A DNA stretch of 10,629 nt from a virus (taxonomy: Duplodnaviria; Heunggongvirae; Uroviricota; Caudoviricetes), in the IMG/VR virus record IMGVR_UViG_2531839127_000027; one strand, 5' to 3'. The notes beneath the pieces were generated by a model. The model was not told the origin of the DNA and searched no databases. It saw only the letters and a list, made by a program, of their open reading frames with translations. Both the position numbers and the translations under genes were made by a program. Shown here in pieces: positions 1,128 through 8,368 of the stretch (position 1 is its first letter; every line of letters begins with the position of its first letter).

Positions 1128-1316
1128 TCAGTCAGATTTGGTTCGTTCCAAGGTTTGCAACGAGAGCTTTTTCCTGTGCTCTTTAAGGAATTTCTCAAGA
1201 GCAAAAGCACATGGCGCGAATCTTTCTGATTCATGCTCTATCTTTCTGCGCCGTCTTTTCCGTGCCGGTGATAATGTTTTGGTCAATTCTTTATCGGTCA
1301 TTGTGTTGTCCTGCAT
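1128..1316 (-). CDS. Possible small basic protein (about 57-62 aa), downstream of the repressor candidate on the minus strand
   Basis: ORF MQDNTMTDKELTKTLSPARKRRRRKIEHESERF...; internal Met (MTDKEL) has an AGGA 8 nt upstream. Hydrophilic, plausible composition. No recognisable family. Confidence 0.25.
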   Translation of the reverse strand: MQDNTMTDKELTKTLSPARKRRRRKIEHESERFAPCAFALEKFLKEHRKKLSLQTLERTKSD

Positions 1317-1358: not shown

Positions 1359-1664
1359 TTACTCTGGTTCTTTGGTCTTGCGACGCTGGAGTTCTTCGCG
1401 TGCAACGGTGACAAGCTGCCCGATTTCTTCCGCTGCTTTGATGCCGATTTGTTCGACCTTAGCCAGGGCATCCAGTGACGACACAAGGGGATTTTCTCCG
1501 CTGCCTTCTGCTTGGCGGCGGGCTATTTCTCCGCGCATGGCGGTTACGATAAATCCGGCATTGCTTTCGCCGTCCAGCTTAACGGATTCCATCCCTTGCA
1601 TAACATCTAGTGGGACTCTGACAGTTGTCAGTTGTGATTTTGCGTTTTTGTTAGCCGTTGCCAT
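1359..1664 (-). CDS. Putative ribbon-helix-helix (CopG/Arc-like) transcriptional repressor, 101 aa
   Basis: ATG at 1664 preceded on the minus strand by GGAG with 8-nt spacing. N-terminus QLTTVRVPLDVMQGMESVKL...SNAGFIVTAMRGEIARRQ fits a beta-strand/helix/helix RHH pattern. Divergent from the replication operon across an operator-bearing promoter region. Confidence 0.55.
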   Translation of the reverse strand: MATANKNAKSQLTTVRVPLDVMQGMESVKLDGESNAGFIVTAMRGEIARRQAEGSGENPLVSSLDALAKVEQIGIKAAEEIGQLVTVAREELQRRKTKEPE

Positions 1665-1685
1665 TTCTGAAACTCCTAATCATCG

Positions 1686-1763
1686 GTGTGTTTCAGTATA
1701 CACAAAAAAAGAAATACAAAAAGCCTTGACGTGTGTTTCATGCGCTCATAACATGAAACACAC
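1686..1763. promoter_or_regulatory. Operator region: perfect 12-bp inverted repeat GTGTGTTTCATG (1731-1742) / CATGAAACACAC (1752-1763) plus a third half-site GTGTGTTTCA (1686-1695)
   Basis: Read directly. The inverted repeat overlaps the spacer and -10 of the rightward promoter. The third half-site lies 45 bp upstream, next to a TATACT -10-like hexamer on the minus strand (complement of 1695-1700). Confidence 0.55.
1726..1754 (+). promoter_or_regulatory. Candidate sigma70 promoter for the rightward replication operon (TTGACG, 17-bp spacer, TAACAT)
   Basis: TTGACG at 1726-1731 and TAACAT at 1749-1754; about 100 bp upstream of the first operon ORF. Confidence 0.45.
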
Positions 1764-1861
1764 CAAAAGAATTGTTGAAATACAAAGAGCAACGCCCCGC
1801 AGTGCCGGAAACACATACGGGGCGTCTAACCACCAACGATAGCAAGATTATCGAGGCTGCT

Positions 1862-2068
1862 ATGAGAAATCATACCATACACCCGCAAGGGCGGGACTCG
1901 CACAACCTGAATAAATACATCTGGCGTTTTATCGCCCTGAGTACGGCACAACCGCGCGTGATTACCATTGAGGCCACCAGCGAACAGGAAGCCCGTCAGC
2001 AATCACCGGCTGGCTGCGTGATGGTATTCGCCGCCCGTATTCGTCAGGGGGTGCACCATGTGCAATAA
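1862..2068 (+). CDS. Small hypothetical protein (68 aa from ATG 1862); weak resemblance to Icd-like host cell division inhibitor family
   Basis: Listed ORF starts at 1772 (TTG, no RBS); the internal ATG at 1862 follows GAGG. Motifs YIWRFIAL...FAARIRQG recall Icd-like proteins from memory only. Confidence 0.45.
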   Translation: MRNHTIHPQGRDSHNLNKYIWRFIALSTAQPRVITIEATSEQEARQQSPAGCVMVFAARIRQGVHHVQ

Positions 2069-2297
2069 CACCCGTCCGGACGCAGCCGCCGAAGCAATCA
2101 AAACACTGATTGATGCGCTGATTGATATTTCATGCACGGCAGCAACCGCAGAAAAACACATTACCAGAGAGACGGAATATACAGGGGCAATAATCCCCCA
2201 TTCGCTGGCATACGCACAGATTACCGCTGATATGGCACTGAATGAGGCTAAAGCCATCCTGATTGCTGATTGTGAAAATGGGGGGGGTTATGCGTGA
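2058..2297 (+). CDS. Small hypothetical protein (79 aa)
   Basis: ATG 2058 preceded by AGGGGG; overlaps neighbours by a few codons, as in a translationally coupled operon. Confidence 0.45.
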   Translation: MCNNTRPDAAAEAIKTLIDALIDISCTAATAEKHITRETEYTGAIIPHSLAYAQITADMALNEAKAILIADCENGGGYA

Positions 2298-2523
2298 TGA
2301 TCGTTTTAATGCCCTGAAACAGGAATTTGATGGCGCACAGGAAGATACAGATATTGCGCTGTTATGTGTTGCTGACATGGTAAAAGCTGCATGTTTTTTA
2401 CTGGAAACCGCCGAACATTCAGGAACGGGTAGCGATATTCTCAATATTGCGTCGGACTATGCGGAATATGTGGCAGAGGCACGTTACAGAAGAAAATTAC
2501 CGGAGGATGTAAGCCATGCATAA
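2290..2523 (+). CDS. Small acidic hypothetical protein (about 77 aa; ORF track start 2263, preferred start 2290)
   Basis: ATG 2290 preceded by GGGGGGG; same strand and tight spacing with neighbours. Confidence 0.45.
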   Translation: MRDDRFNALKQEFDGAQEDTDIALLCVADMVKAACFLLETAEHSGTGSDILNIASDYAEYVAEARYRRKLPEDVSHA

Positions 2524-2716
2524 TCATGAATCGCACTTACCTGTCGTGCTGAATGTGCCGTCAGATTATACGGGGCGCGTTTTGATATTCCTGGATAAAG
2601 GGAAAGTGAAATCACAATGCCGTCTTAGAAATAATGAGGTTGTTGGTTCTCTGGCTTTTTTTTCTGAAGCCTGTATTCGTGCCGGAATAAAATCGGAATC
2701 ACTGACAGGAAAATAA
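2516..2716 (+). CDS. Small hypothetical protein (66 aa)
   Basis: ATG 2516 preceded by GGAGGA; overlaps the upstream ORF stop. Confidence 0.4.
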   Translation: MHNHESHLPVVLNVPSDYTGRVLIFLDKGKVKSQCRLRNNEVVGSLAFFSEACIRAGIKSESLTGK

Positions 2717-2720
2717 AACC

Positions 2721-3008
2721 ATGAAAAAGAAAATTTCTGGCTTTACTGCCAGCGGCCCCGCTCGGCCTGAAATCCGCCCCGGCGATATTTTCCGGGATAA
2801 CTACGGCGGCACGATAACGATAAAAGACGTGGAAGAACGGCGCATCACCTACCGTCGTGAAGGCTACGACTATGACTGCGTGATGCCTGTTTATCAGTTC
2901 CGGCGTGATTTTAAGCTGGTGGGCCATCGTAAAGCCGTAAATCAGAAACGTGCAGCAAGCTATATCCGCAAAATCCGTGAAATGCTGGTCGCAGGGGGTA
3001 AGAAATGA
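2721..3008 (+). CDS. Small hypothetical protein (95 aa), translationally coupled to the primase gene
   Basis: ATG 2721 preceded by AGGAAA; stop overlaps the primase start (ATGA at 3005-3008). Confidence 0.5.
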   Translation: MKKKISGFTASGPARPEIRPGDIFRDNYGGTITIKDVEERRITYRREGYDYDCVMPVYQFRRDFKLVGHRKAVNQKRAASYIRKIREMLVAGGKK

Positions 3009-4753
3009 AACTGGCACCGAACGTAAAAAAACAACCACGCGGAATAAAGCACAAAGAAACAGAGGTAATTATTTTCGCGGGTAGTGATGCGTGGGCACAT
3101 GCAAAACAGTGGCAGGAACAGGACGGCCCCGCATCCGGCGATAATGTGCCGCCTGTGTGGCTTGGGCCAAATCAGCTTGCTGAACTTGATGCGCTGAAAA
3201 TTGTTCCGGATGGAAAAAAACGCGTAAGGCTGTACCAGGCCGGAGAACTGGATTTAGTGGAGATCAAAAAGATTGGTCAGAAGCTGGCGGCGGCAGGCGT
3301 ACAGGACGCAAATTTTTACCCCGAAGGAATGCACCACCACGAGCGGCAGAACTGGCGGCGCTATCTGAGTGCTGAGTGTGAAAATATTGCCGCAGGGCTT
3401 ACCATGCCGGAACAGAAAAAAGCACAACTTTCACAGATGGCAGACAGTGAACGGGCACAGCTTCTTGCTTCCCGCTTTGATGGTGTCTGCGTCCATGCCG
3501 AAAGTGAAATCGTTCACGTATGGCGCGGCGGGGTATGGTGTCCGGTCAGCACAATGGAACTTAGCCGCGAAATGGTGGCGATCTATTCAGAGCACAGGGC
3601 CACTTTCAGCAAGCGCGTAATCAATAACGCCGTGGAAGCGTTAAAAGTTATTGCCGAACCAATGGGCGAGCCGTCCGGCGATTTGCTGCCGTTCGCCAAT
3701 GGTGCGCTTGACCTGAAAACGGGGGAATTTTCCCCGCACACGCCGGAGAACTGGATCACCACGCACAACGGCATTGAGTACACGCTACCAGCACCAGGGG
3801 AAAACATCCGCGATAACGCGCCAAACTTTCATAAATGGCTTGAGCACGCAGCCGGAAAAGACCCGCGCAAGATGATGCGTATATGTGCCGCGCTGTACAT
3901 GATTATGGCGAACCGGTACGACTGGCAGATGTTTATTGAGGCCACCGGAGACGGCGGTAGCGGTAAAAGTACATTCACACACATAGCCAGCCTTCTGGCA
4001 GGGAAACAGAACACGGTAAGCGCTGAAATGACATCGCTTGATGATGCTGGTGGACGTGCGCAGGTTGTCGGGAGTCGTCTTATCGTCCTGGCTGACCAGC
4101 CGAAATATACAGGCGAAGGAACGGGCATCAAGAAAATCACAGGCGGCGACCCCGTGGAAATTAACCCGAAATATGAAAAGCGTTTCACGGCGGTAATCAG
4201 GGCGGTGGTGCTGGCGACCAACAACAACCCGATGATATTCACCGAACGGGCCGGAGGGGTGGCACGTCGTCGCGTGATTTTCCGTTTCGACAATATCGTC
4301 AGTGAGGCCGAAAAAGACAGGGAGCTACCGGAAAAGATTGCGGCTGAAATCCCCGTTATTATCCGCCGATTGCTGGCGAACTTTACCGACCCTGAGAAGG
4401 CACGGGCTTTACTACTGGAACAGCGTGACGGTGATGAAGCACTGGCGATAAAGCAGCAAACGGATCCAGTTATTGAGTTTTGCCAGTTCCTGAATTTTCT
4501 GGAGGAAGCGCGTGGCCTGATGATGGGCGGCGGTGGTGATTCCGTGAAGTACACAACCAGGAACAGCCTTTACCGTGTCTATCTGGCGTTTATGGCTTAC
4601 GCAGGCAGGACCAAACCGCTGAACGTAAATGACTTTGGCAAGGCTATGAAGCCCGCCGCGAAAGTTTACGGACATGAATATATTACGCGAAAAGTTAAGG
4701 GGGTAACGCAGACTAACGCAATAACAACAGACGATTGCGAAGCGTTTTTATAA
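3005..4753 (+). CDS. Replication protein: SF3/D5-type NTPase primase-helicase (P4 alpha-like C-terminal region), 582 aa
   Basis: Walker A GDGGSGKST (encoded near 3949-3975), a hydrophobic strand ending in aspartate (LIVLAD) that could be a Walker B, and a later VVLATNNNP stretch. GGGGG RBS before ATG 3005. Followed by an iteron cluster. Confidence 0.85.
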   Translation: MKLAPNVKKQPRGIKHKETEVIIFAGSDAWAHAKQWQEQDGPASGDNVPPVWLGPNQLAELDALKIVPDGKKRVRLYQAGELDLVEIKKIGQKLAAAGVQDANFYPEGMHHHERQNWRRYLSAECENIAAGLTMPEQKKAQLSQMADSERAQLLASRFDGVCVHAESEIVHVWRGGVWCPVSTMELSREMVAIYSEHRATFSKRVINNAVEALKVIAEPMGEPSGDLLPFANGALDLKTGEFSPHTPENWITTHNGIEYTLPAPGENIRDNAPNFHKWLEHAAGKDPRKMMRICAALYMIMANRYDWQMFIEATGDGGSGKSTFTHIASLLAGKQNTVSAEMTSLDDAGGRAQVVGSRLIVLADQPKYTGEGTGIKKITGGDPVEINPKYEKRFTAVIRAVVLATNNNPMIFTERAGGVARRRVIFRFDNIVSEAEKDRELPEKIAAEIPVIIRRLLANFTDPEKARALLLEQRDGDEALAIKQQTDPVIEFCQFLNFLEEARGLMMGGGGDSVKYTTRNSLYRVYLAFMAYAGRTKPLNVNDFGKAMKPAAKVYGHEYITRKVKGVTQTNAITTDDCEAFL

Positions 4754-4766
4754 TTTTTTGCAATGG

Positions 4767-4994
4767 CTGTCTACCCTGTCTACCTGGGTAAAGGAAAATA
4801 CATTTAATTCAGTATATTAACTTAGGTAGACAGCCTTTTTTCACTATCTACCTACTATCTACCCTCTCTACCTGATTTTACCTGAATCAGACAGGGAGGT
4901 AGATACGGGGTAGATAGTGGATAAAAGCACTCTACCCCGATGAAAGCCGCGCCATTACTGGCATTGGGGCCAGCAAGGTAGATAAGGTAGACAA
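4767..4994. repeat. Iteron cluster, candidate origin of replication: 11 copies of TCTACC / GGTAGA in both orientations around an AT-rich core (4791-4823)
   Basis: Read directly: TCTACC at 4770, 4779, 4847, 4857, 4867, 4931; GGTAGA at 4825, 4898, 4909, 4977, 4987. Immediately downstream of the primase-helicase gene. Confidence 0.55.
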
Positions 4995-5734: not shown

Positions 5735-5757
5735 AGCCGGAACAATCCGGCTTTTTT
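5735..5757 (+). terminator. Rho-independent terminator after ssb
   Basis: Stem AGCCGG (5735-5740) / CCGGCT (5747-5752), loop AACAAT, then a T6 run (5752-5757). Confidence 0.6.
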
Positions 5758-5832
5758 ACGGGTCCTCCCGATGGAGTGGCCTTGCCACGGGGCGGGAGCG
5801 GCGCGGAAAAAGGCTGGTTTTTGCATTTTCAT
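5752..5832 (+). repeat. Copy 1 of an 81-bp duplicated segment (77/81 identical to 8288-8368), starting at the terminator T-tract
   Basis: Read directly; contains ACGGGGCGGGAGCGGCGCGG, which resembles the lambda cos-junction sequence ACGGGGCGGCGACCTCGCGG as recalled. Confidence 0.7.
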
Positions 5833-8269: not shown

Positions 8270-8293
8270 GGGCGGCGACAGCCGCCTTTTTTT
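8270..8293 (+). terminator. Hairpin plus T7 tract after the capsid gene; stem sequence matches lambda cosN as recalled
   Basis: GGGCGGCGAC at 8270-8279 matches the first 10 nt of the lambda cosN overhang GGGCGGCGACCT (from memory). Stem GGCGGC (8271-8276) / GCCGCC (8281-8286), loop GACA, T7 at 8287-8293. Confidence 0.5.
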
Positions 8294-8368
8294 ACGGGTC
8301 CTCCCGGTGTGGTGTCCTTGCCACGGGGCGGGAGCGGCGCGGAAAAAGGCTGGTTTTTGCATTTTCAT
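8288..8368 (+). repeat. Copy 2 of the 81-bp duplicated segment (see 5752-5832)
   Basis: 77/81 identity; all four mismatches fall in one 9-mer (ATGGAGTGG vs GTGTGGTGT). Confidence 0.7.

Follow-up and report, generated by a model that had tools for sequence, protein, structure and literature searches.

The window, that is, the whole stretch of 10,629 nucleotides analysed here, is a satellite of the EcCICFT073 kind (a Gram-negative PICI of about 10.8 kb), as judged from its gene content. It is small, carries int followed by alpA and a primase-type replication module, has no lysis or tail genes, and also encodes SSB, a protease-capsid fusion and a small-terminase-like gene. A near-identical island is located between abgR and smrA in E. 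coli PI7, where it begins with the integrase (start 8715 in L001) and stops just short of smrA (19550), a length of about 10.8 kb. Together with its flank, alpA is 96-100% identical between the window and EcCICFT073, and the arrangement int-alpA-...-repressor / Icd-like-...-DUF4222-primase was found again at several integration sites.

The region of interest lies between alpA and the primase-helicase gene (Table 1). The alpA gene, which encodes the known PICI activator, is convergent with the operon of a 101-aa candidate repressor, and the candidate repressor gene is divergent from the replication operon. This divergence had been pointed out in the first-pass annotation and is borne out. The rightward genes are continuous from the Icd-like gene to the D5-type primase. 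The Icd-like protein matches PHROG families labelled 'transcriptional repressor' (6e-46), and it shows no co-variation with the predicted operator repeats. Downstream of the candidate repressor gene lies a small basic ORF with an RKRRRRK motif, which is 84-100% identical among islands with different repressor types. This ORF is unannotated in PI7 and clone D i14 and annotated as hypothetical in CFT073; no match to it was found in Pfam or NCBIfam, and its PHROG family (phrog_21027) has no assigned function. A leftward transcript would span this ORF and end at the two terminator-like hairpins beyond it.

Table 1 Positions of genes, promoters, predicted sites and hairpins in the window
Feature	Position	Strand	Remarks
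alpA	411-599 (longer form 243-599)	+	62-aa form as annotated in PI7; Pfam Phage_AlpA 1.3e-17
Two intrinsic-terminator-like hairpins, strong	1051-1026 and 928-901	-	between leftward operon and alpA side
Small basic ORF, 62 aa (57 aa from second ATG)	1128-1316	-	downstream of candidate repressor gene, co-directional
Candidate repressor gene, 101 aa	1359-1664	-	AGGAG 8 nt upstream of ATG
Predicted site 1	1687-1695		TGTGTTTCA exact, centre 1691; over predicted leftward start, adjoining leftward -10
Likely leftward (candidate repressor) -10, TATACT	1695-1700	-	read from sequence; poor -35
Predicted site 2	1710-1718	-	TGTATTTCT, 2 mismatches, centre 1714; leftward promoter spacer/-35 region
Rightward promoter	1726-1754	+	TTGAC-17/18-TAnnnT at same place in all loci examined
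Predicted site 3	1732-1740		TGTGTTTCA exact, centre 1736; promoter spacer beside -35; palindrome left arm
Predicted site 4	1754-1762	-	TGTGTTTCA exact, centre 1758; palindrome right arm
Tentative site 5	1776-1784	-	TGTATTTCA, 1 mismatch, centre 1780; leader, 22 bp past site 4
Conserved hairpin, stem 1792-1825, T-rich tail	1776-1825	-	between rightward promoter and Icd-like start
Rightward operon	1862-4753	+	Icd-like gene to D5_N/DUF5906 primase-helicase; genes abut/overlap
Icd-like gene	1862-2068	+	first in rightward operon
Four small ORFs	within 1862-4753	+	between Icd-like gene and DUF4222
DUF4222 gene	2721-3008	+	
D5_N/DUF5906 primase-helicase	3005-4753	+	

Several other features of the window were observed. 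After alpA, a remnant of a Bro-N/Ant-type anti-repressor gene is present at 652-900 on the plus strand (PHROG anti-repressor matches, best E 8.5e-6), and three relatives (L022, L026 and L029) have intact Bro-N or AntA genes at this position. The 396-aa ORF called at 652-1842 crosses the candidate repressor gene in antisense and is an artefact. We also considered whether AlpA-driven transcription could pass the convergent repressor gene and reach the operon; no terminator was seen on the plus strand, yet the idea is disfavoured because intact relatives have the Bro-N gene and terminators between alpA and the repressor operon. Farther along, an 81-nt direct repeat (5752-5832 and 8288-8368, 95% identical) starts about 25-35 nt past gene ends, namely those of SSB (5719) and the protease-capsid fusion (8263), and could be a shared regulatory or terminator element. 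Just 3' of the primase gene, 4832-4929 form a long near-perfect palindrome of CTATCTACC-like repeats, which is probably the replication origin and which gave spurious miRNA matches in Rfam.

Promoters, repeated sites and leader hairpin

The perfect 12-bp inverted repeat described in the first-pass annotation is present as reported: GTGTGTTTCATG (1731-1742) and CATGAAACACAC (1752-1763) are exact reverse complements located 9 nt apart, and with a 12-nt exact seed this is the sole inverted repeat in the whole window. The rightward promoter is likewise found where it had been placed, with TTGACG (1726-1731) and TAACAT (1749-1754) separated by a 17-nt spacer, and it was the sole sigma-70-like site reported by a promoter scan of 1100-2300. 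The repeat overlaps the core of this promoter, as had been proposed, and the promoter position is kept in all relatives. The same scan did not flag the leftward promoter, whose -10 position carries a TATA(A/C/T)T that is conserved in type A, B and E loci.

The third copy of the repeat, which had been assigned to the -10 region of the candidate repressor gene, occurs exactly (GTGTGTTTCA, 1686-1695), but it covers the predicted leftward start just 3' of the -10 and does not lie on the -10 itself. This copy has an imperfect partner at 1710-1718 and is therefore one arm of a second predicted operator, located over the candidate repressor's own promoter. The earlier picture of one palindrome plus a half-site thus gives way to a row of sites about 22 bp apart, four of them firm and one tentative, with centre spacings of 23, 22, 22 and 22 bp. 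The sites centred at 1736 and 1758 flank the rightward -10, and those centred at 1691 and 1714 flank the leftward -10; site 4 spans the final base of the rightward -10 (1754) and the predicted rightward start.

The 9-mer TGTGTTTCA is concentrated in this region. Exactly three copies occur in the 10.6-kb window, all within 76 bp (1687-1762), and by our own arithmetic about 0.08 exact copies would be expected from length alone. When one mismatch was allowed, five of the eight matches were located within 1687-1815, and with up to two mismatches seven matches were counted in 1650-1850, compared with 0.9 per 200 bp elsewhere. A partial, eighth-base match at 1807-1815 in the loop of the leader hairpin is probably due to chance and is absent from other type-A loci. 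As a separate observation, the 11-mer GGCTTTTTGTA, located upstream of alpA at 179-189, recurs as its reverse complement in the T-rich stretch 1715-1725 between the divergent -35 regions; with about 0.06 such matches expected, this may be chance or may point to an upstream element common to both places.

The hairpin between the rightward promoter and the Icd-like gene is conserved in all loci, and RNAalifold found 10 pairs with compensatory changes. Its orientation is indicated by two features. First, all 26 wobble pairs are G.U when read on the minus strand, whereas a plus-strand RNA would have A.C mismatches in their place. Second, the folding energy is -34.4 kcal/mol for the minus strand and -24.5 kcal/mol for the plus strand. 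The element resembles a leftward terminator or, alternatively, the 3' terminus of an antisense RNA, and it lies within the swapped cassette described below and travels with the candidate repressor gene. No conserved sigma-70 promoter was found upstream of the leftward hairpin in 16 loci. An Rfam search of the window at E<=1 gave only spurious miRNA/lncRNA matches and no family for the hairpin, and an immunity RNA of the P1/P4 type was rejected, with no C4 or isrK match (RF01695, RF01394) at E<=1 on either strand.

The 101-aa YlcI/YnfO-family protein

The product of the candidate repressor gene consists of an N-terminal RHH-like domain (residues about 9-54), a flexible linker (55-58) and a long C-terminal helix (59-98). 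It scores 63.2 bits against the NCBIfam YlcI/YnfO model NF041551 (cut-off 30), with residues 9-50 aligned to positions 1-42, that is, to the whole 42-position model, and PGAP names the protein as a YlcI/YnfO-family member in PI7, clone D i14 and CFT073. The family is narrow (73 clusters at 50% identity among 1.84 billion proteins) and comes in long (about 100 aa) and short (52-66 aa) forms, the short ones being common among the 73 representative clusters. PHROGs lists the 101-aa protein as being of unknown function, and no published function of YlcI/YnfO was found in the openly searchable literature.

The first-pass annotation had called this protein an RHH repressor, and as far as computation reaches, its N-terminal domain is predicted to be RHH-like. 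The topology is that of an N-terminal strand and two helices, the second of which is preceded by a short turn, although the monomer model does not predict the N-terminal segment as a strand. By sequence, no detectable similarity linked the protein to the curated families and solved proteins of the RHH (Arc/MetJ/CopG) superfamily. No Pfam RHH family was reached at threshold, a weak PSK_trans_fac match being found in 20 of 27 members (best E 0.0011), PDB profile searches using full-length and N-terminal profiles returned no RHH protein, and a Foldseek search using the 101-aa protein returned nothing. With hhalign, the protein was aligned to Arc in register with 25% probability and to Mnt with 2%. 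A PDB profile match to Hef (helix-hairpin-helix-like, residues 45-86, E 0.0048) was marginal and was not trusted, since AF2 predicts a single continuous helix over these residues. Judged by fold evidence alone, the modelled protein is likely to be an RHH protein.

Site sequence and strand residues among related islands

For comparison, we used 19 related islands from at least eight genera, with relatives from Xenorhabdus, Photorhabdus, Serratia, Enterobacter, Klebsiella, Edwardsiella, Cronobacter, Erwinia and Phytobacter and from other E. coli islands, and 16 loci were each scanned with their own motif. The layout is the same in all relatives: integrase, AlpA-type gene, variable zone, and a repressor gene divergent from the Icd-like gene, followed by DUF4222 and the replication gene. 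In most loci the scan placed sites at about -27, -50, -72 and -94 from the repressor ATG, spaced by 21-25 bp across the 16 loci, and a weak fifth site was seen at about -116 to -122 in nine of them. The type-specific motif occupies -27, the equivalent of site 1, in most relatives, and the equivalent of site 2 (-49/-50) also has it in other specificity types. Direct and not inverted repeats make up the two promoter-proximal sites in three types.

While the positions of the sites are constant among the 19 islands, their sequence varies with the amino acids at positions 12 and 14, in the N-terminal strand. The strand LTTV of the window goes with TGTGTTTCA, QISI with TGTGATTCA, SLTA with GTGTAAGAC, (L/V/I)KN with GTGTGTATT, QLNA with TGGTATTCA, QINA with TGGGATTCA, and ALKA of EcCICFT073 with GTGGCCCAC. 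Repeated 7-mers were common to 19 of the 20 locus pairs that share residues 12 and 14. Among loci of E. coli, Xenorhabdus, Photorhabdus and Serratia that have the same strand, hardly any change is seen in the arms (single-base changes in two loci), and the spacer between the arms is variable. In one locus (L008), residue 13 is changed from T to F and the site is unchanged, which fits alternate strand residues facing the DNA.

This co-variation bears on whether another factor (AlpA, the Icd-like protein or a host protein) binds the repeats while the 101-aa protein does something else. The PHROG annotation of the Icd-like protein as a transcriptional repressor would allow such a role, and AlpA is a DNA-binding regulator that is needed for induction of such islands (PMC6092414). 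However, the type of site tracks neither of these proteins. Between the window and EcCICFT073, AlpA and the Icd-like protein are each 97% identical, yet the two loci share no repeated 7-mer and their repressor strands differ. Two further pairs (L028/L024, Icd-like proteins 98% identical; L018/L021, 90%) likewise have different repeats. Near-identical AlpA and Icd-like proteins beside unrelated repeats exclude linkage as the cause of the co-variation between site and strand. A host factor would not account for eight repeat types within E. coli, and we give binding by another factor hardly any credence.

A second alternative would make the protein an RHH antitoxin or autoregulator of a leftward two-gene operon with the basic ORF, with the overlap of the rightward promoter being incidental. 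Against this, it is the divergent promoter and not the protein's own that has the strongest (perfect) sites, and the downstream ORF matches no toxin family of the type II toxin-antitoxin systems that have RHH antitoxins. Other islands replace this ORF with unrelated genes or lack it, yet keep the site array. We consider this alternative very improbable, if slightly less so than binding by another factor.

The variable part of the locus is sharply delimited. In a binned alignment of the window with EcCICFT073, 401-1350 were mostly 96-100% identical and 1851-2050 about 90-98%, whereas 1351-1850 were only 8-76% identical, and this replaced block (about 1351-1850) corresponds to the candidate repressor gene, the site array and the leader. 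When two other E. coli islands were compared, the break was inside the repressor gene, after about codon 47, so that the DNA-binding domain and the sites move jointly and the C-terminal helix remains with the flank. We read the repressor gene, sites and leader as an exchangeable cassette with at least eight specificities, and islands of different types should consequently not repress each other.

EcCICFT073 itself, which is located between roxA and phoQ in CFT073, has the repressor/site module, and differs in form. Its protein (L033 25474-25653) is a 59-aa short form without the linker and C-terminal helix of about 42 residues, in which the RHH domain is fused straight to a basic tail, and the sites at its rightward promoter are direct repeats of GGTGTGGCCCAC 23 bp apart. 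This short form, the direct repeats in three types, the poor leftward -35 and the N-terminal strand that the monomer model does not show as a strand count against reading the protein as an RHH repressor.

Predicted control of the replication operon

We regard it as fairly probable, chiefly on the strong comparative evidence, that an RHH repressor/operator cassette, as predicted from these sequences, silences the operon from icd to the primase gene, regulates its own expression and exists in several specificities. A dimer of the protein would place its N-terminal strand, at residues about 10-17, in the major groove and recognise a site of 9-10 bp, TGTGTTTCA in the window. With a spacing of about 22 bp, roughly two helical turns, all sites would be on one face of the DNA. 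Occupation of the perfect sites at 1736 and 1758 would block RNA polymerase at the rightward promoter, and the Icd-like-to-primase operon would be kept silent while the island is integrated. Occupation of the weaker pair at 1691 and 1714 would lead to negative autoregulation, and the C-terminal helix probably joins dimers at neighbouring sites. Such a mechanism, a small repressor occluding a promoter, is of a classical kind, and the terms 'immunity switch' and 'gating replication' used in the first-pass annotation would describe this predicted role.

On these grounds we put the protein forward as a strong candidate for the repressor of EcCICFT073-like islands, which according to the literature had not been identified. 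Experimentally, helper-phage induction and packaging have been shown only for EcCICFT073, and over-expression of AlpA alone triggers its excision and replication (PMC6092414). If the island is under repression, it must therefore be possible to lift this without an anti-repressor from a helper phage. The openly accessible later papers on Gram-negative PICIs repeat the AlpA model and do not mention the repressor gene, and searches of the literature (YlcI/YnfO, PICI + RHH, cf-PICI repressor, EcCICFT073) returned no description of the repressor/site module. We tentatively propose, as something short of an even chance, that the protein is this repressor, sets heteroimmune types through two strand residues and works with the cassette-linked leftward RNA hairpin, with AlpA overriding or by-passing it.

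Alternatively, the protein may bind the sites as a modulator and not as the quiescence factor, the silence of the island being due mainly to the absence of AlpA. It could, for example, dampen or time the early operon after induction, like Cro or Arc, or exclude incoming islands of the same type. The requirement for AlpA in induction agrees with this, as does the fact that AlpA over-expression suffices for replication of EcCICFT073, where the module is present (PMC6092414), and neither an anti-repressor target nor a cleavage motif is evident. The distribution of the cassette also fits exclusion between islands: the type-A cassette (1525-1830) was found in 262 of 5426 complete E. coli genomes, nearly always as a single copy (267 places), whereas a query with the conserved flanks (1100-2300) matched 1751 of these genomes with up to six places per genome. 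The same contrast is consistent with co-resident islands of different repressor types. Against a mere modulator, the replication operon has a single recognisable promoter, and the perfect sites cover its spacer and start. The gene also points away from this operon, as the genes of maintenance repressors do in Gram-positive PICIs and phages, and sites for autoregulation suggest that the protein is made steadily while the island is integrated. We consider a modulator unlikely.

Reading the protein as a resident repressor has several consequences for the control of Gram-negative PICIs, which is where its interest lies. If it is confirmed, the model of induction shifts from one in which AlpA activates to one in which AlpA must overcome a resident repressor. 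The comparison also suggests a specificity code that relates residues 12 and 14 to a 9-bp site, predicts cross-immunity groups among co-resident islands, and would offer orthogonal repressor/operator pairs for engineered PICI vectors.

Among known systems, the predicted arrangement can be compared with Mnt, which is encoded with Arc in immI of phage P22 and combines a small RHH domain with a C-terminal helical oligomerisation domain. The mnt gene is divergent from the operon that it controls, its operator extends over the core of the promoter under its control, and the same region serves for autoregulation. An RHH-like domain with a C-terminal helix, a divergent gene and sites over the controlled promoter are predicted here as well. 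However, there is no meaningful sequence relationship with Mnt or Arc (the hhalign values of 2% and 25% given above), and four to five sites about 22 bp apart are found in place of the two half-sites one turn apart of the Mnt operator. The controlled operon encodes an Icd-like protein and replication proteins and not an anti-repressor, and the element is a satellite and not a phage.

In Gram-positive PICIs (SaPIs), the Stl/Rpr gene separates the integrase side from the replication module and is divergent from the replication operon (PMC6092414). The candidate repressor shares this position in the island and the proposed silencing role. Stl/Rpr are larger proteins of the helix-turn-helix type, and specific helper-phage proteins remove them by binding, whereas the protein of the window is RHH-like and its islands also need the activator AlpA. 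The RNA immunity of P1/P7 (C4 RNA upstream of icd) and P4 (CI RNA) has been reported in some Gram-negative PICIs (PMC10111431). As in these systems, the controlled operon begins with an Icd-like gene, and a conserved structured RNA element separates the icd start from the promoter. Unlike in these systems, the hairpin of the window folds on the strand opposite the operon, and the predicted specificity determinant is a protein. In E. coli K-12, the prophage proteins YlcI (DLP12) and YnfO (Qin) belong to the same NCBIfam N-terminal domain family as the protein of the window, and their genes lie in prophage late regions; compared with them, the satellite form has an extra C-terminal helix of 40 residues and a regulatory position.
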